A stretch of 64,000 nt of DNA, from the NCBI GenBank assembly GCA_019322485.1, contig JAHWIK010000015.1, forward strand, positions 23,216 through 87,215. The letters run 5' to 3'. Under the pieces are notes generated by a model. It was not told the origin of the DNA. It searched no databases and saw only the letters and a list, made by a program, of their open reading frames with translations. This stretch comes from Candidatus Woesearchaeota archaeon. Lineage in GTDB: Archaea; Nanobdellota; Nanobdellia; Woesearchaeales; JAHWIC01. This document shows positions 9,060 through 57,130 of the stretch, in pieces. The position numbers were made by a program, and so were the translations under genes. Within the stretch, counting starts at the first letter, position 1, and every line of letters starts with the position of its first letter.

Positions 9060-9893
9060 CTAGTATTTGCTAATCTTAGGAAATTCCCTCAATAAAAATC
9101 TTGTTAAAGGTGTTTGCGGTTTTTCTTCAACCTCTCTCCTATAGACATGATACGAATGTAATATCTCTCTTTTGAAAGATTCTCTGAGATTTGCTCTTTT
9201 CTTGAATGCTTTTATCTGGGCAGTATAGGCTTGAAGGTCATGGTAGACCTCAAATAAATCTCCATTAAGATTCAGAACTCTTCTTTGGAATTCTCTAAGT
9301 ACATCTGATTCCATCTCAATCTTACCCCCAGCAAATATCTCAACATGCCTGTATTCATGATCAACTAGCATACTCAAGAATTCATCTTCTGACTGCAAAC
9401 CCTTGAATGAGCCTCTGTATATTGTTGTTCTTAGCTTTTGAGCAACTCCTCTATAATTACTTGGAGCTATAAATTTTGTTCTCATAATCATTGCGCCAGA
9501 CTCGACTAGCGGATTTGGGTGATAATCACTCTTGTTGTCATATACAACCAATAGATCTCTTATTGGAGGGGGATTCTTTTTCACGACCTGTTTAATGTAT
9601 GTTTCTCTGTATGCCTCATTTGCTTTTGCTTCCAGGAATGAGAGTTCTCTGTTTGGAACGCTCTCTGGTTTAGAGTTCATTTCATATTGAGGCCTACTAG
9701 CTCTAGATGCATAATAAGCGTAAATAGATGTTCCAGTTATTGCTAAAGCTGCAAGCCCGCTTAAGCCCCATACCCAGAGTTTGCTTCTTTTTTGAGGAGC
9801 TTTAGCTTCTTGCTGAGCAGGCTGTTTCTTTTTTGCTTGCTTTCTTAGCCTTTTCTGCCTTTTGGTTAAACCCTTGTTTTTTTTCCTTCCCAT
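9060..9893 (-). CDS. membrane-anchored protein with an N-terminal basic tail, one TM helix and a conserved HExxH motif; short paralog of the next gene
   Basis: N-terminus 'MGRKKNKGLTKRQKRLRKQAKKK' is nearly identical to the N-terminus of the 864-aa neighbour; TM helix 'LWVWGLSGLAALAITG'; 'DHEYRH' = HExxH. Confidence 0.5.
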   Translation of the reverse strand: MGRKKNKGLTKRQKRLRKQAKKKQPAQQEAKAPQKRSKLWVWGLSGLAALAITGTSIYAYYASRASRPQYEMNSKPESVPNRELSFLEAKANEAYRETYIKQVVKKNPPPIRDLLVVYDNKSDYHPNPLVESGAMIMRTKFIAPSNYRGVAQKLRTTIYRGSFKGLQSEDEFLSMLVDHEYRHVEIFAGGKIEMESDVLREFQRRVLNLNGDLFEVYHDLQAYTAQIKAFKKRANLRESFKREILHSYHVYRREVEEKPQTPLTRFLLREFPKISKY

Positions 9894-9910
9894 TTTGCCT
9901 TAGTTAAGGT

Positions 9911-12505
9911 CTATTTAACATCCTTTACAGGACTTTCTCTAAAATCTTTAACACCGTCTCTTACAAGCTCAGCATACTTAACTGGATTCTGCATATAATC
10001 CTGGAGAACTGCTGCACGTCCTTGTTCTTCAACAAGTTTTAAGATGATAGGAACGCCTAAATAAAGATGGCTTTGATTCTCGCTAATCTCGCGGTCAATA
10101 GCTTTTTGCGATATGCCAAATCTCTCTTTGTTTTCTCTTATCCAGTGCCAGGCAAGGGCATGCACAATTGCTTCGTCTGTAATCTTGCTCATGTACTTAG
10201 CTTCTTCTAAATTCTCATATGTTATCTCATCTCCGTCTCTTGAAACTTTAATGAGACTTTCCATAATCTTCCCGCTGTAAGGACCGATTAGGCAATGCAG
10301 TGTCTCACAATACATTGAAAAGTGTGCCCCTCCTACGTCTTCTTCATGAGCTTTGACAAAGATATATTCAGGGTCTAGCTTGACCTTTCCGTCTTTAAGA
10401 TTGCCTGTTCCTCCTCCACGGCCTCCTTCTCCTGCATCTAAATCAAGTGGTGGCAGTTTATCTTTGCGACCATCTGCATGAACAGCATAGGTTTGTCCAA
10501 TTACTCTCCTCCCAACTTGATTTACAATATAGATTGGCATGGAATCTCCCTTAGTTTCAGCTAAATCATCAATACTTTGAACTGCCTTAAGATGAAAATT
10601 AGTTCTTAGACCAAGCTTATCATAATCTTCAACTACATGACCAAGTGCTTCTTGAAACATAGACGGTTCATACTTCTTCAATGGCTGAATATATGTTCTC
10701 GTCTTTAATGTCTCAAATGAAACCTCAGTCACATCACTAAAACGTCCTCTGTGTTTTGGATGCCTCAAACTTTTCCAGATCCAGTCTCTGACCTTTAGTA
10801 GCAGTCCATCTTCCCTTATAGAGTTTTCAAAATTTCCTTTAACAATCACACCTTCTTCAGGAATATAACGATAATCTCCAACTTTTTTTGCTTTTAGCCT
10901 CAACTGGACTCTTCCAGCCTGGATTCTATCTAAGCTTGTATATTCGAGAAGCAATTCAATACCTGCTCTTTGAGGGCTGTTCCTTGTATCTTCAAAAAGT
11001 TGATTTTTCATCTCCCTGTAATCGGCTAATGCAACGTCATAAGTAATACTGCTTACTTTTCTTCTTCCACTTACAATCATAAGTAAAGGATGTATAGAAC
11101 TATGGTATTCCTCGAGGAGTGCACCTAAGTCTCCATTACCTGGTTGCCACAAGGCATCGAATAAGGCTTTGATATGTTGTATCTCTTCTTCGCTCATATC
11201 CTTGATAATAGGCCAATCTAATTGCCTATGATGTTTAGTTGCCGCATGCACAGACTCATTATCAACAGCAGAAAGCAGGTCTTGTTCAGTTTGGAACCCA
11301 AACCCAAAAGCATGCTTGGTCACACATACAGTTGCTGGCTGTCCACTTGGCTGATTACGTTCAACGTACATAGCTGTCTTTCCACTAAACTTCTTAATCC
11401 CATCATTTTCTCGAGTATCATCTCCTACATACCTGAACTCTCTAATAGACTCAAATAGAGGATTCTCGTCTCCTAAATGCTCCAGCAATTCATCAAGATA
11501 CTGCTGCCTTAGATTCTCAGCAACTTTTGCTTCGTGGTAAGTAAGTAAGCGTTCTGGCGGGCCATCCTGTCCAGCCTTTGAAAGTCTTTTTCCTATGGCA
11601 CTTAAATGATGGGGAAGATTAAATCTTGTTTTTAGGGCGTCAACAACTCCTGGCCTTACTTCCTCCCAATTTCTTGCTTCCTCTAACTTGGAGAGATATT
11701 CAAGATGGGTTGTAAGTAAATGTTCGGCATATCTTAGAGATATTGTATCAGGCGGTATAAGCCCACCACTAGGGTCAATCTTGATATGTTTTCTAATCTG
11801 ATGCTCATAACAGTCAAGTTCCTCTACAATGTCAAGTAGTCTTGTTGAGAGCGTTCCTTCTGCAGTTAAGCAGTATTTAATCAAGTCATTCCGTCCTGAG
11901 GCATACTGTTTACCATGTCTGAATTCATGATCTCTTAGAGCACATATAAAATCAGCTGCAGTCTCCATACTGGATTTTTCAGTGCTAAATGCACGAGAAC
12001 TTATTTCAATTCTGCTATTCTTGCCCTCTACTTTTCCATCTATGAACCTTGAGTTCTCTGGAGTAAATGCCCTCATTGCTGCCCTAGTGTCCTTTTTGAA
12101 ATAATCTGAGTTTGGAGCATATTTCATACCCATAACATATTCAGGCAAACCAATCTGTTTCTTGACTAAATCAATAAAATGAGCTCTTCTGCCTTCATCC
12201 CTTTGAGCAAGCCTGAATTCCTTTTCTAAATCAACTTTTGCTTCCCTAACAATAGGTGGTTTTTCTGCTATTGGCCTAGAATCAACCGCAGGACTGCTTC
12301 TTGAGAGATACCAGCCAGCTAAACCAGCAACTATAGAAAATCCAGCTGCAGCAATTATTCCAGGAACAGCATAACTTCTTTGTTGCTGCGCCTCTTGAGC
12401 TGCTTGCTCAGCAGCTTCTCTTTCTGCAGCCTGCTTTTTTAGCCTTTCCTGCCTTTTGGTTAAACCCTTGTGTTTTTCTCTCTTCTTTCTGCTTTTTGAA
12501 CCCAT
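9911..12505 (-). CDS. large (864 aa) membrane-anchored protein with a conserved HExxH motif (putative zinc metallopeptidase-like ectodomain)
   Basis: N-terminus 'MGSKSRKKREKHKGLTKRQERLKKQA' followed by a TM helix; 'DHEFRHGKQY' aligns with 'DHEYRHVEIF' of the paralog. No other recognised domain. Confidence 0.5.
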   Translation of the reverse strand: MGSKSRKKREKHKGLTKRQERLKKQAAEREAAEQAAQEAQQQRSYAVPGIIAAAGFSIVAGLAGWYLSRSSPAVDSRPIAEKPPIVREAKVDLEKEFRLAQRDEGRRAHFIDLVKKQIGLPEYVMGMKYAPNSDYFKKDTRAAMRAFTPENSRFIDGKVEGKNSRIEISSRAFSTEKSSMETAADFICALRDHEFRHGKQYASGRNDLIKYCLTAEGTLSTRLLDIVEELDCYEHQIRKHIKIDPSGGLIPPDTISLRYAEHLLTTHLEYLSKLEEARNWEEVRPGVVDALKTRFNLPHHLSAIGKRLSKAGQDGPPERLLTYHEAKVAENLRQQYLDELLEHLGDENPLFESIREFRYVGDDTRENDGIKKFSGKTAMYVERNQPSGQPATVCVTKHAFGFGFQTEQDLLSAVDNESVHAATKHHRQLDWPIIKDMSEEEIQHIKALFDALWQPGNGDLGALLEEYHSSIHPLLMIVSGRRKVSSITYDVALADYREMKNQLFEDTRNSPQRAGIELLLEYTSLDRIQAGRVQLRLKAKKVGDYRYIPEEGVIVKGNFENSIREDGLLLKVRDWIWKSLRHPKHRGRFSDVTEVSFETLKTRTYIQPLKKYEPSMFQEALGHVVEDYDKLGLRTNFHLKAVQSIDDLAETKGDSMPIYIVNQVGRRVIGQTYAVHADGRKDKLPPLDLDAGEGGRGGGTGNLKDGKVKLDPEYIFVKAHEEDVGGAHFSMYCETLHCLIGPYSGKIMESLIKVSRDGDEITYENLEEAKYMSKITDEAIVHALAWHWIRENKERFGISQKAIDREISENQSHLYLGVPIILKLVEEQGRAAVLQDYMQNPVKYAELVRDGVKDFRESPVKDVK

Positions 12506-12661: not shown

Positions 12662-13294
12662 ATGTTTTACAAAGTTGAACTGAAAGACCACATAAGGGTG
12701 CCGCCTGATTTATTTGGCTTGCCTTTAGATGAAGCTGTGATAAAGAGGATAAAGACAAAGTACTCTGGGTTTATATCAAAGGACCTTGGTGTGGTTATTG
12801 ATGTTTCTGAAGTAGACAGCATAGGTGAAGGAATAATAGTGCCTGGTGATGGCGCTTCTTACTATGATGTTACATTCAAGCTTCTTACTTTTAGGCCGGA
12901 ATTGCAGGAAGTTGTTATGGGAAAGATAAGGGAAATAGCTGACTTTGGTGCTTTTATGACTCTAGGCCCAATAGACGGCATGATACACATTTCACAAACA
13001 ATGGATGATTTTGTAAGCTTTAGCAAGGATAAGACCCTGTCTGGAAAGGAAACAAAGAAATCCCTGAGTGTTAATGACGTTTGCAGGGGCAGGGTAATAG
13101 CTGTGTCCTATAAAGATCCAATGAATCCCAAGATTGGCCTGACAATGAGGCAAGGCGGCTTGGGAAGGCTTGACTGGATAGAAGCAGAGCATGAGAAGGA
13201 AGAAAAAGAAAAAGCTGAAGAAGAGCCTGAAGAAAAGAAAGGCAAGGAAAAGCCAAAAGAGAAGAAGAAGGCTAAAGGGAATAAGAAAAAATGA
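12662..13294 (+). CDS. rpoE: DNA-directed RNA polymerase subunit E' (Rpo7/Rpb7 homolog) with a Lys/Glu-rich C-terminal tail
   Basis: 'MFYKVELKDHIRVPPDLFG' N-terminus and an S1 domain, characteristic of Rpo7; followed by spt4, S24e and S27ae as in the conserved archaeal cluster. Confidence 0.85.
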   Translation: MFYKVELKDHIRVPPDLFGLPLDEAVIKRIKTKYSGFISKDLGVVIDVSEVDSIGEGIIVPGDGASYYDVTFKLLTFRPELQEVVMGKIREIADFGAFMTLGPIDGMIHISQTMDDFVSFSKDKTLSGKETKKSLSVNDVCRGRVIAVSYKDPMNPKIGLTMRQGGLGRLDWIEAEHEKEEKEKAEEEPEEKKGKEKPKEKKKAKGNKKK

Positions 13295-13531: not shown

Positions 13532-13936
13532 ATGGATCTTAAGATTATTGAGAAGAAAGAACAACCTATGCTCTCTAGGATAGAGATAAAGGGAAAACTT
13601 GAGTTTCAGGGAGCAACCCCTTCAGCTAATGAGGTTAAAAAACAATTATCTTCAGAATTAAAGGTTGATGAAAAGCTTATTGCTGTTAAGAACATCTCCA
13701 CCTATTTTGGTGTTAACAATGCTGACTTAGTTGCTTATGCTTATCTTAACAAAGAAGATATGGACAAGGTAGAGCCAAAGCCAAAGGAAAAGGCTGGAGC
13801 AAAGCCTGCTGCTAAAGAAGCTCCTAAGGAAGCTGCTAAAGAGGCTCCTAAGGAAGCGCCAAAAGAAAAGCCTAAAGAAGAAGCTCCTAAAGAAAAGCCT
13901 AAAGAGGCACCAAAGGAAGAAAAGCCTAAGGAATAA
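13532..13936 (+). CDS. rps24e: 30S ribosomal protein S24e with a KEAP-repeat C-terminal tail
   Basis: 'KIIEKKEQPMLSRIEIKGKLEFQGATPS' matches the S24e N-terminal consensus; tail 'KEAPKEAAKEAPKEAPKEKPKEEAPKEKPKE'. Confidence 0.8.
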   Translation: MDLKIIEKKEQPMLSRIEIKGKLEFQGATPSANEVKKQLSSELKVDEKLIAVKNISTYFGVNNADLVAYAYLNKEDMDKVEPKPKEKAGAKPAAKEAPKEAAKEAPKEAPKEKPKEEAPKEKPKEAPKEEKPKE

Positions 13937-13938
13937 AA

Positions 13939-14160
13939 ATGGCAAAGAAAAAAGTAAAACCAAAGAGACCAAGCAAAAGATACTCATTATACGAGAAATC
14001 AGGAGAGAAGAAGAACAGGTTCTGCCCTAAGTGCGGCCCTGGAATTTTTATGGCAAAGCATAATGATAGAATAGTTTGCGGTACATGCCATTATACTGAA
14101 TTTATTAAGTCAGAAACACCAGCTGATAAAAAAGCAGATAAACCAGCTGAGAAAAAATAA
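13939..14160 (+). CDS. rps27ae: 30S ribosomal protein S27ae
   Basis: C4 zinc-ribbon 'CPKCGPGIFMAKHNDRIVCGTCHYTEF', typical of S27ae. Confidence 0.8.
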   Translation: MAKKKVKPKRPSKRYSLYEKSGEKKNRFCPKCGPGIFMAKHNDRIVCGTCHYTEFIKSETPADKKADKPAEKK

Positions 14161-24484: not shown

Positions 24485-24838
24485 TTAGTCTTTTGTGATT
24501 AGCTCATCAGCCTCAATATAAGGCTTTGTTCCTGCAAAAGGAATCTCACCATAACGGATTGTCCCCCTTACAACATAATCAACCTCATACTCAAATGTTT
24601 GCTGCGCTACTGCTTTCTTTACATAAAGATAAGGGCCACCGCTTACCTTAGCCCATTCCCGCTTTGCTGTTCCATCTATGATGCCCCTTATCTCAACTTC
24701 CATGCCTTCATACTTTTCAGGATTATCATTTATTGCTTTAATCAATGCACCATCACTTGCTTTTCTTACAATAATCTCATAGCCACCAAACTGGCAGCCG
24801 CATAAAAAAATTAAAAATAAAACTAATAGTTTTTTCAT
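24485..24838 (-). CDS. small secreted/lipoprotein-like protein (117 aa), last gene of the giant-protein operon
   Basis: 'MKKLLVLFLIFLCGCQFGG' signal; start overlaps the stop of the upstream gene by 4 nt. Confidence 0.4.
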   Translation of the reverse strand: MKKLLVLFLIFLCGCQFGGYEIIVRKASDGALIKAINDNPEKYEGMEVEIRGIIDGTAKREWAKVSGGPYLYVKKAVAQQTFEYEVDYVVRGTIRYGEIPFAGTKPYIEADELITKD

Positions 24839-26016
24839 TTTTTCTTCCTCTTTTTAGGCTTTAGTTTCTTTATCATTATTATCAATGCTGCAGCTATAAT
24901 AGCTAAGGCAACTGCCACATACAACAATGGAGATACCTTTCTTTCTGCTTCGTGCAGCTCTATTGTAAACTCCCTTTCAAAGGTTTTATCTTTATAGTAA
25001 GCCTTTGCCTTTAGTTCATAAGATCCAAGCTCCAGCTCATGCGCTTCCCAATGAAGCCTTACAGAGCTGTTCCTGTTTGGTTCGATATCAATCCTGTTTG
25101 CTTCCATAGCTGCAATTACTGTGCCATTCCTGATAATATCTGCAGTCAGGTTAACATCCTCAAGCTCTTTATTCCAGTTTGACCCTAAGAACATATTTAT
25201 CCTGTTGATTTTATCAACAACAGCAGTTCTTGTTCCTAAGAAAATCAGCACCCCTTCTTCACCAATCCTAAAACTTCCAGTTTCTTCTACTGCTTTTCCG
25301 GAAAACTTAATGATTGATTCTGCATCATACTCACCAGGCTTGAACAGGAACTTCTTTATGGTTAATTGGTTTTCATGACTTTTTCCAGGCTCAATAGTAA
25401 ATGTTGCTTTTGGCAGGGATAGTATCTTCTTCTCTGTATTTCCCAGAATCTTATAACCAAGCACTACATCATGGAATCCATTTACAAGTGCAGCTTTGTA
25501 CAGGCTTGCAACTTTCTCTTTATTCTCATATATGTTAAGGTCATTCTCTATTCCTCCAATTGTTATTGCGCCTTTGTTTTCCATTACTGTTGTAAATTTC
25601 ATAAGATATTGGCTGTCATCAATAACCAAAAGCTCTGTTTTAAGGTATTCCTCAGGATACGGAACAAATAAATTAACCGTATGATGTACTGATGGCTTTG
25701 TTGTTACTGTTCCTGAACCTGCTGGTTCTTCATATACAACTATCTTAGCCTGATGCTCGCCAGGCCCGAAAGGCCCTGATAGGTTAAAGCTGAATTCTTT
25801 TGGGCCTATTACAACCCCTTCACGCGCAATCTCCACGTCAAGCTCACCTTCAACACCAATTGTAATCCTTGTTGGAAGGTTTGATGAAGGTATAACTGTA
25901 AAAACACCTGAATGCTCTTTATTCCCAAAGAAATCTGTCTTTGCGGGCATTGCCCCTAAAGCAAACACAGCGTCTATTGAAAGCACCAATATAATAAATA
26001 AAATCCATTTTTTCAT
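24835..26016 (-). CDS. secreted protein with an N-terminal signal peptide and a C-terminal TM anchor plus KKRKKK tail (393 aa)
   Basis: Signal 'MKKWILFIILVLSIDAVFALG'; C-terminal 'PLLYVAVALAIIAAALIIMIKKLKPKKRKKK'; start overlaps the giant gene's stop. Confidence 0.45.
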   Translation of the reverse strand: MKKWILFIILVLSIDAVFALGAMPAKTDFFGNKEHSGVFTVIPSSNLPTRITIGVEGELDVEIAREGVVIGPKEFSFNLSGPFGPGEHQAKIVVYEEPAGSGTVTTKPSVHHTVNLFVPYPEEYLKTELLVIDDSQYLMKFTTVMENKGAITIGGIENDLNIYENKEKVASLYKAALVNGFHDVVLGYKILGNTEKKILSLPKATFTIEPGKSHENQLTIKKFLFKPGEYDAESIIKFSGKAVEETGSFRIGEEGVLIFLGTRTAVVDKINRINMFLGSNWNKELEDVNLTADIIRNGTVIAAMEANRIDIEPNRNSSVRLHWEAHELELGSYELKAKAYYKDKTFEREFTIELHEAERKVSPLLYVAVALAIIAAALIIMIKKLKPKKRKKK

Positions 26017-29000
26017 GTTGTTCTCACCAATATAGTTGAATTCTTCTGCCCCGAGGGCTCAAGCAACGGCACAGTTGCGTTCAAATCAATCTCTGCTGTG
26101 TCTGAGGCATCTTCCCAGTTTAGATTATATATTGCCGGCGTGCTGTTTGAAGGCATTGGAGTTAATGTTGTCGTTGCTGAAGTGAATGAGCCGGATTCAT
26201 TCACGCCTATTGCGAATTGATATGACTCATTTGGATTAGGCACTGTCTCAAACAAGTCAGTTGCATTTATTGATATGTTGACAATTAAATTGCCTACATT
26301 TTCCAATAGGAGCGGCAGTGGGCTGTCATCTTCTGTGGATTCACTAAAGCCAGGTATTACCACCCCAAAGTCAACTACATCCCTTGTCAGGTTTATTGCT
26401 ATGTATGAGCTTAATGTAAAGTTCCATACATCGCTCCATTCTCCTGAGATAATGGAGTGATAAGCCCTTACTCTCCAGAAATATGTCTTGTCAAGCTCGA
26501 GGTCGCTTATTAGTGTGTGGCTGGTTTCATTATTGCTTCCTTCTGATAGATTTCCTCTTGAGTAATCTAATGATGTAAAGATTGGCGAATCATCTATCTC
26601 TATCTCGTATTTTGCAGTTGTTGAGCCATTGTAGGTTGCATTGTACCAAGTGAATGTTGGCCTTAGCTCTGTTGTGGTGTTTCCGCTTTCCGGGCTTTTG
26701 AGGATAACCTTTGACGGCCTGTTGGCTTCTTCTCTTTCACATGCGTCTTTGCATGTGTAGCCATTGTATGTCTGGGTATAATCACAGACCCATATGTTCT
26801 CTTTGCTGTTTCCATTGCTCCAAGGCAGTTCTCCTGATACTGTTCTTGTGTCATTGTCATCTCTTAACTCAACCTCAACAGTATAGTATCCTTCACTCAA
26901 GCCGCTTAAACTGACTGTGCCATTGCACATTCCTGTTGATGCAAGCGGAACACTTCCGAGAGATATCCTGCTGCCAGGGCTGTTCTTTTCTGCATAAACA
27001 ACACAGCCAGAGGCATTAGCAGTAAATCCATAAGTGCTTGTGAAATTAACTGCTACATTCAGTGTTTCTGTTGGCACGTAATAATCCTTTGTTGGGTATG
27101 AAGTACTGCAGTTTGTGTCTATGCAGAAGAATCCTGTTGTTTGTTTTGGCAAGGTTCTTACATCAATGGTCAGGCTTGTGTTTGGACCAATATTGCCGAC
27201 ACCATCAACTGCCCTTGCATAGATTGTATTTAAGCCGTCAGATAATGTGAGGGCATACCTGCAGTCATAAGCTGATGTTTCATTTACCCATCCAGTGCCG
27301 TCATTAAACTGGCAAAGTTCAACGCCGGAATTCCATGTGCCAGAGTCAGTTGCATTTACTCTTACATAAACAGTGTCTGAGGCGCTTAATCTGGTAACTG
27401 TATTGTCTGTTTTTATCATTCTTAGCCTGGAGGTTGTGTAATCATCATCTGCAGGAGTTGTTTTTACAAATACTGGTGCTTGCGGCGGCTCTGTTTCAAG
27501 GATGTACTGCGTAACATCTGCATTTTGCTCTACTCCGCCTATACTTGTTGAGACATAATACGAGAAACTCGAGTTTTGTACAATTGTGTCATTATCAGGG
27601 ACAGTTATCCAGAATGTTAGGTTTAAAATCTGGTTTGGATATGCTCCGCTGTATTCTATAAGGACAGCCTGGTAATGATATCCTGATTGAGCACTGTACT
27701 GCACATTGAAATTACCAGAGTCTGTTCCATAGATTCCAGAGTTTGATGCATTCATCTCATAATCTAATGGCACATAGGTTGCGCTTGCACTTCCAAGATA
27801 AATCTGGATTGTTTTTCCGTTTACATTTGTGGCTGAGTCTGTGAATGTGAATGTAAGGTTTTTTCCTCTCCAATGATATTCTGTGTATGTCAGGTCAGGT
27901 GTTCCGCCGCCCCAGTTTGTGTTTACTGAGTAATCTGGGGGCTCTCCGCCTATGTAGCTGACTGCTGCTGCATCAGAGCATTTTAGCGTGCATGCTGCTA
28001 AACTATTTGTATACGGGGCCAGGCATGAAGCACCTGATGAACAATCTGAGTCTTCGCAGTCAACTGAATTGTCAAAATCATTGTCATAGCTGTCTGTGCA
28101 TGCTGATTCTGTTGTTCTATACCCTGTTCCTGCACTAGCCGAGTTGCAGATTCCTTGGCTTGTAGACCACACACCAACGATTCCATCACAGTCTGAATCC
28201 CTGCAGTCATAAACACCATCATTAAGGCTGGCGTTTATCTCATTAGGGTCATAATTTGTCTTTGAGATGTATTCATCTTGGTATTCATACTCATTGTTTA
28301 AGCCATCCATGCACGAATCTAGCGTTACATTCTCTTCTGGAGGACAGACCCTGCATAATCCTTGATGATAACATCCTGTATCATAACAGTTTGCAAGATT
28401 ATCGCCATCATTATCCATTGAGTAAGCTGTTGTTCCGCTTGAATTATAATCACCGCAAAGAGTATCATCAAAAGGATCAAAGTACATCTCTTCAAATAAT
28501 GCACATAAAATATCTCCTGGGCCCAGCAGGCCATTGCAGTCAGGGTCGCCACAATCTGTTCCTGAAGCATCATTTGTCTCGTATTCTGTTCCATTCCATG
28601 TGTAGGCATCTAGGTCATTGTCTAATGTGTCATTGCAGGTCTGCTCTACTATTGATAATCCTGAGCCGTCATCTGTACAGACATACAGGCCAGATTCCTG
28701 CACAGCATAGCAGTTATAATCATCACAATCTTCACCTGTATTTGCACCGGCATGTGCGCTTCCTGACTCTCCAACATAATAGGTTCCTAGGTCTTGGTCA
28801 TTGTCAACTCCATCAGAACAGTTGTATTCCCATCTTATTGTGCATAAGCCGATATTTCCTGAGTCATTTATGTAAGTGTTATTGCAGTCAGAGTCATAAT
28901 TATTCCATGCACAGTCAATTCCTGCTCCAGCTGCAGTACTTAGATTAATACCATCTGACAAATAATTATCAAGGTCATTGTCAATGCTGTCAAGGCACCA

Positions 29001-32000
29001 GTTTTGTGTGCTGTTGCAGCCAGTTGGTGAGCATGTATAGTTTTCCCGGCCAGGGCAGGCAGAATTGTTATAACAGCTGTAATCATTGCAGTCACCATCT
29101 TGCAGGTAGGTGTTTGCTCCAAAGTGGTATTGATATGATGCATTTGTCCATCCAGGGTTCTGCATCTGGCTGATGTAATAATCCTGGTCATTATCAAAAA
29201 CATCTGTACAGTTTCTTTCAATAATTAATTCACAGTTTTGTCCTGACGGGCCGATAGCTGTATCATTGCAGTCTTGGTCATATCTATAGCTGTCATAAGC
29301 AATAGCATACGGCCAGAATTGGTTTGGAGTGAGACCATATGCATAATAGATGCAGTCTATTCCGCCTGATAGGTTTTCCACTCTGTTTGAATCTAATAAA
29401 TAATCAGTTATGTTGTAGACATACCTGTCTAGGTCATTGTCAACTCCATCAGTGCACAATGATGCTGTTTCTGTTGTAGGGCATGCAGAGTCATTTGCAC
29501 AGTCATAATCATCACAATCATAGCCGCCAGAGGCGCTTGTCCTATTCCCGCCAGGATTGTATGCATTATCTAAGTCATTGTCATAACCATCTGTACAGTT
29601 TATCTCGTGGCCTAGCTCACATTTTCCAGGACCCATATCAACACCATCACAGTCTGCATCAGGGTAGTGGTTTCCATCATAGTTATATCTGCAGTCCATT
29701 CCACCGCCATACTGGTTGTTTGTTGCACTATATTGTGTTCCTGTCCAGCCGGTTATTGTATAATAATCAAGGTCATTATCCTTGTTGTCAGAACAGTTTG
29801 CTCCATCATTTTCCCAATAGTTTGTTACATTGCATGTTGATTGGCAGTCATACTCTCCATGTGCAATGTTGCTTCCACCTGCACCATATTGATAATTTGG
29901 GTTTGTTGTTGAGGCTCCTGTTGAGGTCGTATTGCAGTCAAGTTCCCCATCCTGGTCATTATCAAATCCATCTGAGCAGCTTGTTTCAAAGATTAATTGG
30001 CATGTTCCTGCTGGCAATACAGAACTATTGCAGTCTATATCATACTCTACCATCCTGCAGTCAGCTCCTGCTCCTGGCAAGCCCGAGTAAAAGTCTAGGT
30101 CATTGTCCTTTCCGTCAATGCATGTTATTCCTGACTCATTTATGGGACAGTTTGAATCATTGAAACAATCATATTCTCCATGAGGATAAGTTCCTCCACC
30201 AGAATAGGTTGACCTGGGGTTAGTTGGATTGCTTAAGTACTGGATTACCCCGCCTGTAAAGAATGCTGTTGTGTTGCAGTCAAATGCTCTGTCACGGTCA
30301 TTATCAAACAAGTCATTACATATTGTTTCTACCCCTAATTCGCATGTGCCATTGATTCCTCCAACATTATAGCTGAGCCAGCTTGAGTTTAGGATGTATG
30401 TGTTGTTGCAGTCAGTGTCCCATGTACCTGCATTATAATGGCAGTCTGTATCACCATCATCGTCATTGTCAAAGCCGTCTGTGCAGGAGTTATTTGTTGC
30501 AGCATATTTGCTTTCATTCTGGTAAGCGCATAAAGGATAGGTTCCGTCAGGGTTTGCCGATGTTGAACCAATATAAGCGTCGCAATCAATGTCAATACAG
30601 TCTGTTGTATAATCCAAGTCATTGTCATATGAGTCTGCACAAGATATATCATGTTCATCTCTTACGCCGTCATCTGAAATATTTATGTTAAATTTAAAGT
30701 CATATGCTGAACCATTAAATATCCTGTTCAAGACTAAGCCATACATTCCATAGAAGTTGTTTGTTGTATTCATCATTGCTTTTAGGACATTATCTAATGT
30801 GCTTTGGGTGTAAGGTGTTGGGTCAGAAGGAGGATTTGGGCCAGACTGGGCAATTATTGAGTTAGCACTTGTTGTTTTTCCGCTTAGACCGGTTGTTGCG
30901 GAGTAGTTTAATATCCAGAAATCACCAGGGTTTTCCTGCCATAATGATGTATTGAACTGCCACACCTTGAAATAAGCTGTATAGCCTGTTATTTGCGAGG
31001 TTTGATACAGCCTCATACTAAACAATGCTTCTGGCTGTATCTTGTATGTGTAAGTGACTGCTGTGTTCGATGCTGTTCCAGTGCATAAGTTTGGTGCGCA
31101 TGAAGCATCACAGGTTCCACCGTCTATGCATTGAAGTGACCCATCTAAATCACCTGGGTCATATGGCGGGTCATCTCTCCAGCCAGCTGCTGTTTTGTTG
31201 CAAGTCCATGCAGGAGTGCCCTGCTTGTTTGTATTAGAGCCCCCTACAATATAATATTCTCCGTAGACAATTGAAGCGCAGTCTGAATCCTCACAATCTA
31301 TTTTACCATCTCCATCATCATCTGCATTATTAGCACAGTGCGTCTCCACAACGTCAGGGGTATTCTTTTTCTTTATTGAGAAGTCAACGTCTTTTGCACC
31401 ATAATAATATGATGAGTCTGCGGGATTATAGAAAACACTTGAACAGGTGTTGTTTTCAAGGAAGTAGTTTGAGTTATCTACGCCGGCTGCACAGTTTGCT
31501 GCCCTGGTCACATAACCTACATACCATGCATAGTTGAGGGCAGCTTTACCCTCGTAGAAAGCAAGTTGCACTGTTCCGTTTAATCTTCTGCCAGATGTTA
31601 CAGGTATTGTGCATGTCCTGTGGCATTCTTCACCAACAGGGCATGTTGAATCCTCAGAGTTATTGACATTAGTCACTGTATTGCTTTGGCTTATTGTATA
31701 GGATATAGAGTAATTATTTCCTGCTGTGTTGGTAACTGTTTCTGCTCCATCTGCATAGTTCGAGTCCATGCAGGAGAAATTAGCTTTTAGGTTTTCGATT
31801 ATTCCTTCTCCGATTACTGTCAGATTTATTACTGAACCATCTTCGTAGAACACCCTTCTCCTGTAATTATTTGAGGTATCTGCCACTCTCAACAGGAAGA
31901 ATCCTACTGTTCCTGATGAGCTAGCTCCTCCTGTTATTTCTGTAATAGATGATAACTCTTTTCCATCAGGGATTATGAAGAAGTTTAGTGAACTGACAAG

Positions 32001-32063
32001 TAAGAGGATAATACAAAGTACTAATTTAATAATTTCAGATATCTTTTTTGTTTTATCTTTCAT
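26013..32063 (-). CDS. giant (2016 aa) cell-surface protein with ~14 MopE-like putative metal/Ca-binding repeats (C[ST]DGxDND[LQD]D...DC); N/T/S/D/G/Y-rich with many N-glycosylation sequons
   Basis: Uninterrupted 6051-nt ORF. N-terminal signal-anchor 'IIKLVLCIILLLVSSLNFFIIP'. Repeated motifs such as 'CTDGFDNDDDGDTDC', 'CSDGFDNDQDGELDC', 'CTDGYDNDLDN' and 'CANNADDDGDGKIDCEDSDC'. Almost no K/R/E in the mature region. Confidence 0.7.
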   Translation of the reverse strand: MKDKTKKISEIIKLVLCIILLLVSSLNFFIIPDGKELSSITEITGGASSSGTVGFFLLRVADTSNNYRRRVFYEDGSVINLTVIGEGIIENLKANFSCMDSNYADGAETVTNTAGNNYSISYTISQSNTVTNVNNSEDSTCPVGEECHRTCTIPVTSGRRLNGTVQLAFYEGKAALNYAWYVGYVTRAANCAAGVDNSNYFLENNTCSSVFYNPADSSYYYGAKDVDFSIKKKNTPDVVETHCANNADDDGDGKIDCEDSDCASIVYGEYYIVGGSNTNKQGTPAWTCNKTAAGWRDDPPYDPGDLDGSLQCIDGGTCDASCAPNLCTGTASNTAVTYTYKIQPEALFSMRLYQTSQITGYTAYFKVWQFNTSLWQENPGDFWILNYSATTGLSGKTTSANSIIAQSGPNPPSDPTPYTQSTLDNVLKAMMNTTNNFYGMYGLVLNRIFNGSAYDFKFNINISDDGVRDEHDISCADSYDNDLDYTTDCIDIDCDAYIGSTSANPDGTYPLCAYQNESKYAATNNSCTDGFDNDDDGDTDCHYNAGTWDTDCNNTYILNSSWLSYNVGGINGTCELGVETICNDLFDNDRDRAFDCNTTAFFTGGVIQYLSNPTNPRSTYSGGGTYPHGEYDCFNDSNCPINESGITCIDGKDNDLDFYSGLPGAGADCRMVEYDIDCNSSVLPAGTCQLIFETSCSDGFDNDQDGELDCNTTSTGASTTNPNYQYGAGGSNIAHGEYDCQSTCNVTNYWENDGANCSDNKDNDLDYYTITGWTGTQYSATNNQYGGGMDCRYNYDGNHYPDADCDGVDMGPGKCELGHEINCTDGYDNDLDNAYNPGGNRTSASGGYDCDDYDCANDSACPTTETASLCTDGVDNDLDRYVYNITDYLLDSNRVENLSGGIDCIYYAYGLTPNQFWPYAIAYDSYRYDQDCNDTAIGPSGQNCELIIERNCTDVFDNDQDYYISQMQNPGWTNASYQYHFGANTYLQDGDCNDYSCYNNSACPGRENYTCSPTGCNSTQNWCLDSIDNDLDNYLSDGINLSTAAGAGIDCAWNNYDSDCNNTYINDSGNIGLCTIRWEYNCSDGVDNDQDLGTYYVGESGSAHAGANTGEDCDDYNCYAVQESGLYVCTDDGSGLSIVEQTCNDTLDNDLDAYTWNGTEYETNDASGTDCGDPDCNGLLGPGDILCALFEEMYFDPFDDTLCGDYNSSGTTAYSMDNDGDNLANCYDTGCYHQGLCRVCPPEENVTLDSCMDGLNNEYEYQDEYISKTNYDPNEINASLNDGVYDCRDSDCDGIVGVWSTSQGICNSASAGTGYRTTESACTDSYDNDFDNSVDCEDSDCSSGASCLAPYTNSLAACTLKCSDAAAVSYIGGEPPDYSVNTNWGGGTPDLTYTEYHWRGKNLTFTFTDSATNVNGKTIQIYLGSASATYVPLDYEMNASNSGIYGTDSGNFNVQYSAQSGYHYQAVLIEYSGAYPNQILNLTFWITVPDNDTIVQNSSFSYYVSTSIGGVEQNADVTQYILETEPPQAPVFVKTTPADDDYTTSRLRMIKTDNTVTRLSASDTVYVRVNATDSGTWNSGVELCQFNDGTGWVNETSAYDCRYALTLSDGLNTIYARAVDGVGNIGPNTSLTIDVRTLPKQTTGFFCIDTNCSTSYPTKDYYVPTETLNVAVNFTSTYGFTANASGCVVYAEKNSPGSRISLGSVPLASTGMCNGTVSLSGLSEGYYTVEVELRDDNDTRTVSGELPWSNGNSKENIWVCDYTQTYNGYTCKDACEREEANRPSKVILKSPESGNTTTELRPTFTWYNATYNGSTTAKYEIEIDDSPIFTSLDYSRGNLSEGSNNETSHTLISDLELDKTYFWRVRAYHSIISGEWSDVWNFTLSSYIAINLTRDVVDFGVVIPGFSESTEDDSPLPLLLENVGNLIVNISINATDLFETVPNPNESYQFAIGVNESGSFTSATTTLTPMPSNSTPAIYNLNWEDASDTAEIDLNATVPLLEPSGQKNSTILVRTT

Positions 32064-33996: not shown

Positions 33997-35889
33997 ATGG
34001 TTAAAGAGGAGTTAGATAGAAGTCACTTTCTTGATTTAGTCAGTAGTCCGAAGGATTTGAGGCTGTTGAATAAGCAGCAGTTAGATATGCTTGCTGAGGA
34101 ATTAAGAAGGCTAATAATTGAAACTGTAAGCAAGACAGGCGGCCACTTAGCGTCCAGCCTTGGTGTTATTGAATTAACTATTGCTTTGCATTATGTTTTT
34201 GACTCACCAAATGACAAGATAGTATGGGATGTTGGACATCAGGCTTATGCACATAAGCTGTTAACAGGAAGAAAAAATAAGTTCCATACCTTAAGGCAGC
34301 ACAAGGGCATAGCTGGTTTTCCAAAATCAAAGGAGAGCCCTCACGATGCCTTTGATACTGGACACAGCTCAACAGCAATATCAGCAGCTTTAGGAATAGC
34401 AGCTGCTCGCGATTTAAAGCATGAAAAAAACAAGGTGATAGCTGTTATTGGAGACGGAGCTTTAACTGGCGGAATGTCTTTTGAAGCCTTAAATCATGCT
34501 GGCTCATTAAAGAAAGACCTCATAGTAATCCTTAATGATAATGAGATGTCAATAAGCAAGAATGTAGGTGCTTTATCCTCTTATCTTTCAAAGCTGGTAT
34601 CAAAGCCTGGTTATGTCGACAGAAGAAAGAAAGTAGAAAGGATTTTAAGGGGGATACCTGGCCTGAGAAGGCAGGCTGCTAAGGTTTTTGGAATCGAGGA
34701 TACAATAAGGGCTTTAGCAGCTACAACTCCTGGCCTGATATTCAGGGAGCTTGGTTTTAGGTATTTTGGACCTGTTGATGGCCATAATATCGAGCAGATG
34801 ATAAAAACATTAGAGAACATAGAACAGCTTAAAGGTCCTATATTGCTTCATGTCATAACAAAAAAAGGGAAAGGCTATAGCTATGCAGAAGCTGACAGGA
34901 CAAGGTTTCATGGCATTGCGCCATTCAACATAGAGAATGGTGAAAAGAAGCACAAGAGCAGCGTTACATACACAACAGCATTCTCAAGATGTTTGACAAA
35001 GCTTGCAAAGCAGGACAAAAGGGTAGTTGCAATAACAGCAGCAATGAAGCCTGGAACAGGATTAGACCAGTTTGCAGGAATGTTTCCAGACAGGTTATTT
35101 GACGTCGGCATAGCAGAGCAGCATGCAGTTACATTTGCAGCTGGCTTGGCTAAGAACGGCTATAAGCCGGTATGCGCGATTTATTCTACTTTCCTGCAAA
35201 GGGCTTATGACCAGATTGTGCACGATGTTTGTTTGCAGAACCTGCCTGTTGTCTTTGCAATTGATAGAGCTGGCTTGGTCGGAGAGGACGGACCAACACA
35301 TCATGGAAGTTTTGATTTATCTTATCTGAGGCATATACCAAACATGACTGTAATGGCTCCAAAGGACGAGAATGAACTGGGGCATATGCTAAAAACAGCT
35401 TTAGAGATTGACGGGCCGGTTGCAGTAAGATACCCAAGAGGTACGGGCTTGGGGGTTGCAATACAGAACCCATACCACCCAATAGAATTAGGAAAAGCAG
35501 AAGTAATGCAGAAAGGAAAAGATTTGGCAATATTAGCAGTTGGTTCTTGCGTTGATATGGCGAATAAGGCTGCTGAGAAACTGGGGAAGAATAAAATAAA
35601 TGCAACCGTTGTTAATGTAAGGTTTGTAAAGCCTCTGGACGAGAAACTAATACTGAACCTAGCAAAGAAACACAGGAAACTGATTACTATAGAGGAGAAT
35701 GCATTAGATGGCGGTTTTGGTTCTGGTGTGCTGGAATTGTTGGAGCAGTATAACACCAAGGCAACGGTAAAAAGAATTGGAATACCTGATAAATTTGTAG
35801 AGCACGGTTCAATGTCAATCTTAAGAGAAAAAATTGGATTAACTGAGGATAATATAGTGAAGGAAGCGAAGTCGTTGATGGCAAAATGA
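33997..35889 (+). CDS. dxs: 1-deoxy-D-xylulose-5-phosphate synthase
   Basis: Signature 'GGHLASSLGVIELTIALHYVFDSPNDKIVWDVGHQAYAHKLLTGR', ThDP-binding 'GDGALTGGMSFEALNHAG', 630 aa. Confidence 0.9.
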   Translation: MVKEELDRSHFLDLVSSPKDLRLLNKQQLDMLAEELRRLIIETVSKTGGHLASSLGVIELTIALHYVFDSPNDKIVWDVGHQAYAHKLLTGRKNKFHTLRQHKGIAGFPKSKESPHDAFDTGHSSTAISAALGIAAARDLKHEKNKVIAVIGDGALTGGMSFEALNHAGSLKKDLIVILNDNEMSISKNVGALSSYLSKLVSKPGYVDRRKKVERILRGIPGLRRQAAKVFGIEDTIRALAATTPGLIFRELGFRYFGPVDGHNIEQMIKTLENIEQLKGPILLHVITKKGKGYSYAEADRTRFHGIAPFNIENGEKKHKSSVTYTTAFSRCLTKLAKQDKRVVAITAAMKPGTGLDQFAGMFPDRLFDVGIAEQHAVTFAAGLAKNGYKPVCAIYSTFLQRAYDQIVHDVCLQNLPVVFAIDRAGLVGEDGPTHHGSFDLSYLRHIPNMTVMAPKDENELGHMLKTALEIDGPVAVRYPRGTGLGVAIQNPYHPIELGKAEVMQKGKDLAILAVGSCVDMANKAAEKLGKNKINATVVNVRFVKPLDEKLILNLAKKHRKLITIEENALDGGFGSGVLELLEQYNTKATVKRIGIPDKFVEHGSMSILREKIGLTEDNIVKEAKSLMAK

Positions 35890-54976: not shown

Positions 54977-57130
54977 TTATACCTTTTCTGTTACAACGTA
55001 CGTCTTGTAAGTATACTGCCTTGGTGGTATTGGTTGAGGTGCGGGTTGAGGTGTTGGTTCTGGTGCAGGCTGTGGTGCTGGTGCAGGCGCTGGTGTTGGC
55101 TCAGGAGTAGGCTCCGGAGCTGGTTCTGGTGCAGGCTGTGGTGCTGGTGCAGGTGTTATTGGTGTTGGTTGCGGTGCGCTTGTAACAACCATTTGAGGAA
55201 GGGTTTGCCGTTCTATTACACTAACAATCCATCTGACACTTACAGCAGCTTTGCCATCAGAGATAATAACTCTCACCTCTTTTTTTCCAGGAGAAGTAAA
55301 CCAACGTCTATGCAGCGGGCCCCCTTTGTAGCGCGCAAGTGGACCAAATATCCATTCATAGCTTAGTGCATCACCATCAGGGTCCTGGGCAGATGCTTGG
55401 AACAAAACAGAGCTGTTGACATAAACACCAAATTGACCCACCATTGGGCTGACATTCCATACAACAGGCTCCCTGTTTGTGTTGTGCACAAGGACTACTG
55501 CATCTTCGCTTGAATTTAAGTCACCATCTGAAGCTGTAAAGGTGACTGTATATTGTTTTGCTTCCAGCCTTCTTGTCTCATCATGGCTGGGGGTCCAGCT
55601 AAACCCGTCTGCATCAAAACTTGAGCCGGCAGGCACATCTTCTGCAGATGTGACAATCCTGTCATTATCTGGGTCATAGGAATTAACATTAAAGTGTAAA
55701 ACTGCTCCTTCATCTACATCCTGCTGAGGTATTTCCTCAAGAACAGGCGGCCTGTTAACATTATTTACAACAACTGTTACGTTCTTCTCAACAGAGGTTT
55801 TGCTGTCAGATAATTTAATAAATACTGTGTAGGTGCCTGCATCATCATAACCAGTCCCTTTCACAGCTTTGTTCATCCAGCCGCTATATCTATAAGATAC
55901 CTTATCACCATCAAGGTCATATCCATTAGGCTCTAATACAAGGGTTTCCCCTTCATTCATGACTATTGTTCCCATATCTTCAAGCACAGGGGCCCTATTC
56001 TCTTCCATGACCCTAATCTTTATGGTTTTGGTTGTGCTAAATTCATTGCTTTCAGCCAGGAATGTTATAGTTTGAGTTCTGCTGAGTAAGTGGAAATTGT
56101 CAAGGAAATATGTAAAGAGGTTTGTTTTTTTAACAAAATCCTTGCTTGGTGTCCATTTAAAGACATTGCCATCAAATCCTGAATTTTCCGGCGCTTCAAG
56201 AACTGTGATTATTATATCATCGCCATCTGGGTCGCTGGCATTTACTACTAAGTTTACTTCCTCACCTTCTCTTACAGTTATATCATGGAGTGGTTCAATT
56301 ATCGGTTCGCGGTCTACATCATAAACTACAAGGTCTACCTTTTTTGAATATTCAAAATCCCTGTCCCTTATTGTTATTGTTACCATGTATTCACCATCAT
56401 CCTCATAGGTGGTTTGCCAGAAATTTTCATTGCCTATTGGCTCTGATATCTCATATTCAAGATGGTAGGCTCCTAAATCAGGAAGCTCGATACTTACTAT
56501 GTCTGTTTCATCTACTTCAATATAGCTTATGTTATCCAGGAGTTGTGCCCTGTCAACATCCTCAATATCCATAGTCCATTCCTGGGATGTTTTAAGCGTG
56601 CTGTCAGATACAACTACTTTTATGGTATGCGTTCCCTGGTCAAAATAGTCTGCGTAATACTCAATCTCTTGCTCCCTGCCTAAGAATTCATCATCAATGA
56701 ACCATTTGTAGGTTAGTTCATCTTCGTTTATGTCAGAGGCCTCAGCCCTGAAGTAGAGGCTTTCACCCTCTTCAATTGACAAAGAGGTATCTTCTGGGTA
56801 GAAATCATATATTTCAGGCTGTTCTTCTTTTTTGTTAACAACGATTATGACCTCTTCTTCTGTGATAAGGTCGCCGTCAGAAGCAGTGACTGAGGCAATA
56901 TAATTTCCAGCATCTCCATAGGTAGTTTGCCATTCTCCCTCGCTGTTTAAGGGGTATGTGTAGGAATATTCTAATGTATCACCGTCAGGATCATCAAAAG
57001 AAGGTTTTATGGAGACAAGGTCAGTCTCATTAACTATCATATTAGTTAGAGAATAAGTTATTGGCAATACAATAATTAGAACTAATACTAAAATTAACCA
57101 TTTCTTATCCATTAACCCAACCCCCAACAT
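54977..57130 (-). CDS. secreted multi-domain surface protein with repeated ~90-aa DPDGD-containing Ig/PKD-like modules and a Pro-rich (PAPEPTPE) C-terminal stalk
   Basis: Signal anchor 'WLILVLVLIIVLPITYS'; repeated '..DPDGD.L.Y.Y......W.T.YGD.G.Y...V..SDG' modules; C-terminal 'PAPAPQPAPEPAPEPTPEPTPAPAP'. Confidence 0.5.
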   Translation of the reverse strand: MLGVGLMDKKWLILVLVLIIVLPITYSLTNMIVNETDLVSIKPSFDDPDGDTLEYSYTYPLNSEGEWQTTYGDAGNYIASVTASDGDLITEEEVIIVVNKKEEQPEIYDFYPEDTSLSIEEGESLYFRAEASDINEDELTYKWFIDDEFLGREQEIEYYADYFDQGTHTIKVVVSDSTLKTSQEWTMDIEDVDRAQLLDNISYIEVDETDIVSIELPDLGAYHLEYEISEPIGNENFWQTTYEDDGEYMVTITIRDRDFEYSKKVDLVVYDVDREPIIEPLHDITVREGEEVNLVVNASDPDGDDIIITVLEAPENSGFDGNVFKWTPSKDFVKKTNLFTYFLDNFHLLSRTQTITFLAESNEFSTTKTIKIRVMEENRAPVLEDMGTIVMNEGETLVLEPNGYDLDGDKVSYRYSGWMNKAVKGTGYDDAGTYTVFIKLSDSKTSVEKNVTVVVNNVNRPPVLEEIPQQDVDEGAVLHFNVNSYDPDNDRIVTSAEDVPAGSSFDADGFSWTPSHDETRRLEAKQYTVTFTASDGDLNSSEDAVVLVHNTNREPVVWNVSPMVGQFGVYVNSSVLFQASAQDPDGDALSYEWIFGPLARYKGGPLHRRWFTSPGKKEVRVIISDGKAAVSVRWIVSVIERQTLPQMVVTSAPQPTPITPAPAPQPAPEPAPEPTPEPTPAPAPAPQPAPEPTPQPAPQPIPPRQYTYKTYVVTEKV

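Follow-up and report, generated by a model that had tools for sequence, protein, structure and literature searches.

A tandem gene pair of a Woesearchaeota archaeon encodes members of a rare HExxH domain family, probably membrane-tethered zinc peptidases

Two adjacent genes of Candidatus Woesearchaeota archaeon (contig JAHWIK010000015.1, assembly GCA_019322485.1) lie head to tail, with 17 nucleotides (nt) between them, in the 64,000-nt stretch of DNA analysed here, which we call the window. They encode proteins of 277 and 864 amino acids (aa), hereafter the short and the long protein, both of which are listed at NCBI as hypothetical proteins of a Candidatus Woesearchaeota metagenome-assembled genome (MAG). 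A first-pass annotation, made by a model from the sequence alone, had noticed in both open reading frames (ORFs) a basic N-terminal tail, one transmembrane (TM) segment and an HExxH motif, and had suggested an uncharacterised family of membrane-tethered zinc metallopeptidases. Both ORFs are present as described, on the minus strand (Table 1). The shared tail motif KGLTKRQ(K/E)RL(R/K)KQA occupies residues 7–20 of the short protein and 13–26 of the long one, and the motifs DHEYRH and DHEFRH, said to stand at equivalent positions, do fall in the same alignment columns. What that description had missed is a second, diverged copy of the domain in the long protein, with the motif DNESVH. In our reading, to which we would give a probability of about 0.6, both proteins are exported, membrane-tethered zinc peptidases of the gluzincin type, the long one carrying in addition a pseudo-catalytic domain (B) and a further module.

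The homology of the two proteins, for which the first-pass annotation had proposed a pairwise alignment, is significant. Compared by BLASTP, they match with an E-value of 7e-12 (29% identity over 244 aa, comprising tail, TM segment and HExxH region), and the ectodomains alone, with tail and TM segment removed, match with an E-value of 8e-7 (24% identity over 161 aa). When 1.84 billion representative proteins were searched exhaustively with a profile of the seven ectodomains, 275 proteins were recovered at E ≤ 1e-3, 51 at E ≤ 1e-10 and 22 at E ≤ 1e-30; word-indexed searches returned five relatives for the short protein and none for the long one. A plant protein (P0104) and a repeat protein (P0131) in the resulting list match over short stretches only and were rejected as false positives. 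Scanning the 64-kb window with the family profile revealed no third gene bearing the domain. Among 185,579 GTDB species genomes, the patterns used found one relative, in an Aenigmatarchaeota MAG (alignment A5), and a search of the GTDB species genomes with alignment A4 gave no match. A metagenome scan added only two short contigs, and no relatives were found in IMG/VR, the PLSDB plasmids or the GenBank phages. The sources that could be placed comprise the window itself, the Aenigmatarchaeota MAG (locus L005) and contigs with archaeal housekeeping genes; all of them are DPANN archaea or archaeal contigs.

Neither Pfam nor NCBIfam (the latter down to E ≤ 10) gave a match for the two window proteins. 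In none of 116 members examined is the domain covered by a Pfam model, TAT_signal being the only one that recurs, and the result with NCBIfam was alike. A PDB sequence search with the family profile found no match, and a PHROGs scan of the 116 members returned scattered noise only. Below threshold, Pfam gave PhageMetallopep in three of these members (best E 0.026), SprT-like in one (E 0.025) and DUF2268 in one (E 0.061), the curated cut-off of any Pfam or NCBIfam peptidase family being reached neither by the window proteins nor by the 116 members. The domain family is rare and unannotated, and the epithet 'uncharacterised' was well chosen.

The proposed metal site is strongly conserved. Positions of the 116-sequence alignment are numbered along the ectodomain, and adding 74 gives the residue number in the short protein; those conserved in at least 90% of the sequences are R22, Y44, F89, H105, E106, H109 and E145. 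Counted by column over 163 domain instances, the first histidine of the motif is kept in 149 of 155, the glutamate in 153 of 155 and the second histidine in 142 of 155, and HExxH as such is found in 124 instances overall. Conservation in homologues, on which the first-pass proposal depended, is thus observed. The same proposal anticipated a third zinc ligand 20–30 residues downstream; a candidate was found somewhat further away, as an acidic residue 36 positions past the second histidine (Glu in 131 and Asp in 4 of 137) in the context E-L-x-A-Y-x-x-Q. This residue is kept in all 121 instances with an intact HExxH. The position three past the second histidine (column 110) holds Q, L, I or D rather than G, so that the signature HExxHxxGxxH/D of metzincins and aspzincins is absent, which leaves a gluzincin-type arrangement. 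To judge from the sequences, the two histidines and the downstream Glu or Asp are candidate ligands of one metal in both window proteins.

For the short ectodomain, AlphaFold2 (AF2), supplied with the 116-sequence alignment, produced a confident model, with a predicted local distance difference test score (pLDDT) of 94.2 and a predicted template modelling score of 0.90; the HExxH motif lies in a folded segment and not in a disordered one. The model begins with helices 12–17 and 19–32, followed by strands 41–45, 63–68 and 79–85. The last of these strands is followed by a short helix and by helix 95–113, which bears HExxH, and the C-terminal part consists of helix 122–133, helix 140–158 with the acidic residue (E145) and two more helices. 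As modelled, this succession of sheet, active-site helix and helical lower half corresponds to that of a small zincin. The top match of a Foldseek search against the PDB was TTHA0227, albeit a weak one (E 0.18). Against BFVD, a SprT-like protein came first (E 0.018, probability 0.97), and after it entries for BepA-like, M48, 'zincin protease', phage metallopeptidase and IrrE proteins; the sub-threshold Pfam matches mentioned above lean in this direction too. TTHA0227 has been described as a 'mini-zincin' and putative peptidase (PMC3890501). Model and searches together make a distant zincin-like fold plausible, with no close solved relative, and the family most likely belongs to the zincin superfamily.

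Each window protein has a single hydrophobic segment; in the short protein hydropathy exceeds 1.3 only in windows around residues 39–41. Upstream of this segment, the short protein has 17 Lys or Arg against one Asp or Glu, and the long protein 14 against six. A looser form of the tail, MGxKK.K..RR.QREL.R/K, also stands at the N-termini of P0002, P0003, P0004, P0008 and P0139; among Woesearchaeota-type members the tail is thus conserved in sequence, beyond charge. No other ORF in which such a tail precedes a single TM segment was found in the window. In other relatives the tail and TM segment are replaced by a twin-arginine motif followed by a lipobox, which reads ...SRRDLL...LLGAC in P0005, P0011, P0012 and P0015 and, in the gene from the Aenigmatarchaeota MAG, ...SRRELL...LLSAC. 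Further relatives carry canonical twin-arginine translocation (Tat) motifs, such as SRRKFL and RRNFLKAG, and the TAT_signal models of Pfam and NCBIfam match several family members. Altogether, an N-terminal hydrophobic signal or anchor is present in about 75 of 151 members; the remaining ones include fragments and a set of proteins of 170–210 aa in which nothing precedes the domain and for which a cytoplasmic location is probable. For DPANN archaea, lipoproteins have been predicted to be frequent (PMC12462473). The positive-inside tails and the export signals of the relatives together support an extracytoplasmic position of the domain, and with it the earlier placement of both ectodomains outside the cell; the two genes probably encode single-pass membrane proteins of N-in/C-out topology.

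The long protein is more elaborate. Its domain A resembles the short ectodomain in having an intact motif (such domains are called A-type here), and domain B is a diverged copy in which the first histidine of the motif is replaced by asparagine (B-type). Domain B is seen in the pairwise BLASTP comparison as a second high-scoring segment pair (E 8e-4), and when the family profile was compared by hhalign with four B-type domains, namely that of the long protein, domain 2 of P0004, domain 1 of P0075 and domain 2 of P0139, the match had a probability of 99% and an E-value of 3.6e-18. The sequence D-N-E is invariant in all four, and both the motif glutamate and the downstream glutamate are retained. 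The B-type domain accordingly looks like a maintained, specialised variant rather than a product of decay. Since its first histidine is invariantly asparagine, domain B probably does not bind zinc; it may instead bind substrate or have a regulatory role.

The C module that follows is unrelated to domains A and B. Its sole homologue, P0154 (58% identity), is a protein of 420 aa that stands by itself and has an N-terminal region and a TM segment of its own (loci L008, 94–1356, and L009, 253–1515); it comes from a related metagenome, out of the same samples in which another contig bears P0003, which is related to the short protein. The module (324 aa) has no match in Pfam or the PDB, and with this single homologue AF2 gave no confident model of it (pLDDT 31.9). 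A resemblance to the C-terminal half of P0008 was considered and rejected, the BLASTP match not being significant and its score being reached by five of 300 shuffled sequences.

If both proteins are gluzincin-type peptidases, one Zn2+ would be held by the two histidines and the downstream Glu or Asp, and a water molecule would be activated by the motif glutamate. A peptide substrate would pair with the edge strand that leads straight into the HExxH helix and be hydrolysed in the manner of gluzincins. Because the linker between membrane and domain is only about 15–20 residues long, the enzyme would be expected to act close to the outside of its own cell's membrane, where its targets might be surface or secreted proteins of the cell itself or whatever the cell is attached to. 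It is tempting to go further and to picture a system, largely confined to DPANN archaea, that processes proteins at the zone of contact with the host, in which a catalytic zincin-like domain would be joined to a sister domain with an obligatory Asn substitution, the tail MGxKK..RxQRELxR would couple the enzyme to a cytoplasmic partner and domain B would serve as substrate receptor; we consider this extended picture very doubtful.

Several observations weigh against a peptidase function for the family at large. In a 17-member sub-branch the motif reads HExxxH (DHE[IV]EGH), with one residue more between the histidines, and departs from the canonical i/i+4 geometry of the zincin helix (this sub-branch includes P0036, P0039, P0042, P0049, P0052, P0062 and P0063, several with canonical Tat signals). 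The histidine ligands are lost in the B-type domains and in a few other members, so that catalysis cannot be a property of all copies. Among the more distant members, about half are without an export signal, although some of these are fragments, and there is no conserved gene neighbourhood to point at a substrate. Finally, one archaeal 'dark' zincin-like HEXXH domain, already noted in a survey of 2026, completes its acidic ligand across a dimer interface (PMC13607799); it may or may not belong to the family described here.

On a rival reading, the domain serves chiefly as a module of the cell surface without catalytic function, engaged in binding, adhesion or scaffolding, and its metal site is structural or vestigial as in pseudoproteases. 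This would fit the maintenance of B-type domains with asparagine for the first histidine in four proteins, the lack of an intact motif in either domain of P0139 (HELNM and DNEAFT), the existence of a few fully degenerate members such as P0030, the presence of other large surface proteins in the window and the general dependence of DPANN archaea on cell–cell contact. However, the motif glutamate of A-type domains is the best conserved of all positions, above either histidine, which speaks against a purely structural site, for which no such glutamate would be needed. Since, moreover, the acidic third residue accompanies every intact HExxH and the A-type site is fully intact in both window proteins, we regard a mainly non-catalytic role as quite unlikely. 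Alternatively, the proteins may be metalloenzymes of another kind, either Fe(II)/alpha-ketoglutarate oxygenases of the HEXXH type or hydrolases of a non-peptide surface polymer or lipid. None of the assignments to peptidase families is significant, and one distant member, of alignment A3, has weak matches to multinuclear non-haem iron-dependent oxidases (MNIO) and maturases of RiPPs (peptides made on the ribosome and modified after translation), the E-values being 1.3e-4 for HvfB of NCBIfam and 0.031 for MbnB_TglH_ChrH of Pfam. An oxygenase would nevertheless be out of place outside the membrane, where the window proteins and their closest relatives have the domain, because alpha-ketoglutarate is a cytoplasmic co-substrate. 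Nor is there a radical SAM protein, an MNIO or a precursor peptide near the pair, whose neighbours are housekeeping genes. The HEXXH-oxygenase model (IPR026337, of TIGR04267 type) does not match the window proteins and is not among the NCBIfam families that match more than one of the 116 members. Other HEXXH proteins formerly annotated as peptidases have in fact turned out to be oxygenases (PMC12636437), but for the present pair a metalloenzyme other than a peptidase seems to us rather unlikely. As for a chance resemblance between unrelated low-complexity membrane ORFs, HExxH is short and frequent by chance, and the genome is AT-rich and has many Lys-rich tails; the probability is nevertheless negligible, the profile search, with its 51 relatives at E ≤ 1e-10, the motif counts, the confident AF2 model and the alignment of the ectodomains by themselves all excluding it.

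The first-pass annotation had further regarded the short protein as a duplicate of the first 280 or so residues of the long one, and this part of it does not hold. P0002 (55% identity) and P0003 (50%) stand closest to the short ectodomain, and P0031, P0153 and P0034 (34–36%) to domain A. Because the two window domains are not mutual nearest relatives, we infer that the genes belong to different subfamilies and are no recent tandem duplicate. At the DNA level, their similarity is confined to 102 nt at the 5′ ends, which form a direct repeat with an exact core found at only these two sites in the window. Within the 14-residue tail motif, identical codons are used for 10 of the 12 identical residues (P ~0.002 under the codon usage of the window, a value to be taken cautiously since the region was chosen post hoc); in the ectodomains, codons are identical for 27 of 51 residues, as compared with 21.6 expected. 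This suggests that the segment coding for the tail has been homogenised between the neighbours by gene conversion. RNA structure as the cause of the repeat was rejected, the folds being no stabler than those of shuffled sequences (z +1.0 and -1.34), and Rfam models at gathering thresholds had no match anywhere in the window.

Table 1. The two genes and their features, in positions of the 64,000-nt window
Feature	Position	Strand	Residues	Remarks
Short gene	9060..9893	-	277 aa	KY360_02615; one TM segment between a basic tail and a single HExxH ectodomain of A-type
Cytoplasmic K/R-rich tail, short protein	9783..9893	-	1–37	predicted; includes KGLTKRQKRLRKQA (9834–9875)
Sole hydrophobic segment, short protein	9708..9782	-	38–62	read from hydropathy as signal-anchor/TM helix
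Short ectodomain	9066..9659	-	79–276	family-profile match; AF2 model
DHEYRH	9345..9362	-	178–183	H179 and H183 proposed as metal ligands, E180 as catalytic base
D219 codon (in HDLQAY)	9237..9239	-	219	family E/D column; candidate third metal ligand
Long gene	9911..12505	-	864 aa	KY360_02620; tail, TM segment, domain A, domain B, C module
Cytoplasmic basic tail, long protein	12371..12505	-	1–45	predicted; includes KGLTKRQERLKKQA (12428–12469)
Sole hydrophobic segment, long protein	12305..12370	-	46–67	
Domain A	11606..12247	-	87–300	A-type, motif intact
DHEFRH of domain A	11915..11932	-	192–197	
E229 codon (in EELDCY)	11819..11821	-	229	candidate third ligand, domain A
Domain B	10901..11563	-	about 315–535	diverged copy, first His replaced by Asn
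DNESVH of domain B	11246..11263	-	415–420	
C module	9914..10885	-	about 541–864	unrelated to domains A and B
Direct repeat, copy 1 (102 nt)	9800..9901	-		over 5′ end of short gene
Direct repeat, copy 2 (102 nt)	12394..12495	-		5′ end of long gene; 76% identical, 21-nt exact core
TTTATAA	12527..12533	-		centred 25 nt upstream of ATG of long gene; possible archaeal TATA box

The possible TATA box stands before the long gene, and no such box was seen upstream of the short gene (117 nt), which makes it likely that the two are read as one transcript. The pair is flanked on one side by genes for a CCA-adding enzyme, an apurinic/apyrimidinic endonuclease and a PIN protein, and on the other by those for Rpo7, Spt4, S24e and S27ae. 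Across the loci L001–L011, neither a second family member next to the gene nor a recurring neighbour was found. Charged tails are common in this genome: Rpo7, S24e and S27ae (12662–13294, 13532–13936 and 13939–14160, plus strand) have Lys/Glu/Pro-rich low-complexity C-terminal extensions, among them the KEAPKE repeats of S24e. Elsewhere in the window, an ORF of 2016 aa with no Pfam match precedes that of a 393-aa protein with a WxL-interacting-protein host-binding domain, the stop of the first overlapping the start of the second (24835–32063, minus strand), and the two may form a large surface complex. A 717-aa protein with Big_9, He_PIG and PKD domains (54977–57130, minus strand) is likewise a likely surface or adhesion protein. 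The ORF for the ribosomal stalk protein L10/P0 (15432–17414, minus strand) is 660 aa long, only its first 180 residues or so being accounted for by the L10 and insertion domains of Pfam, and a full-length 1-deoxy-D-xylulose-5-phosphate synthase, an enzyme of the bacterial-type methylerythritol phosphate pathway, is encoded at 33997–35889 (plus strand) in this DPANN archaeon.

Most DPANN archaea are uncultured; their genomes are reduced, a life in attachment to other cells is assumed for them, and to our knowledge very few of their surface proteins have an assigned function. New zincin-like families appear regularly, and the present finding is unsurprising in kind. What it offers is a conserved, exported HExxH…E family that lies outside all database models, and an unusual architecture in which an anchored domain with an intact, putatively active site is combined with an Asn-variant domain and an extra module. 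The ectodomain of about 200 aa offers a cheap and concrete target, and its substrates could hint at the way in which these cells reshape their envelope or a partner's. The sister domain with its invariant His-to-Asn change provides a natural pairing of presumed enzyme and pseudo-enzyme.

Compared with known systems, the domain has no significant sequence or profile match to the minimal gluzincins or to zincins of the SprT/Wss1/Spartan types (projannalysin, 4jix; Spartan, 6mdx). These proteins reside in the cytoplasm or the nucleus, several of them depending on DNA, whereas the present domain is predicted to be membrane-anchored and extracytoplasmic; it also differs from them in having a pair of conserved helices at its N-terminus (F..A....LRQ.Y) and two additional ones at its C-terminus. 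The mini-zincins TTHA0227 and Acel_2062 (2ejq and 3e11; proposed MEROPS family M94) are Asp-zincins with HExxHxxGxxD, while here the glycine is lacking and the acidic residue is found at +36. Gluzincins of families M48 and M56 (BepA, 6sar; BlaR1, 8exp; HtpX type) have a multi-pass membrane domain in place of the single N-terminal anchor and a different distance to the third ligand, and neither the window proteins nor the 116 members match Pfam Peptidase_M48 or M56. The HEXXH oxygenases of RiPP pathways (ChlH, 8s5f; PflC/PosC; IPR026337) reside in the cytoplasm, have their genes in RiPP clusters and are in many cases fusions with radical SAM domains, unlike the window proteins, which do not match the model of that family, appear to be exported or anchored, and are encoded among housekeeping genes. 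The combination of an active zincin domain with a degenerate duplicate recalls anthrax lethal factor, an architectural analogy only, with no detectable sequence relationship; in contrast to that case, the B-type domains described here are marked by a specific, invariant His-to-Asn replacement and have kept their glutamate residues.

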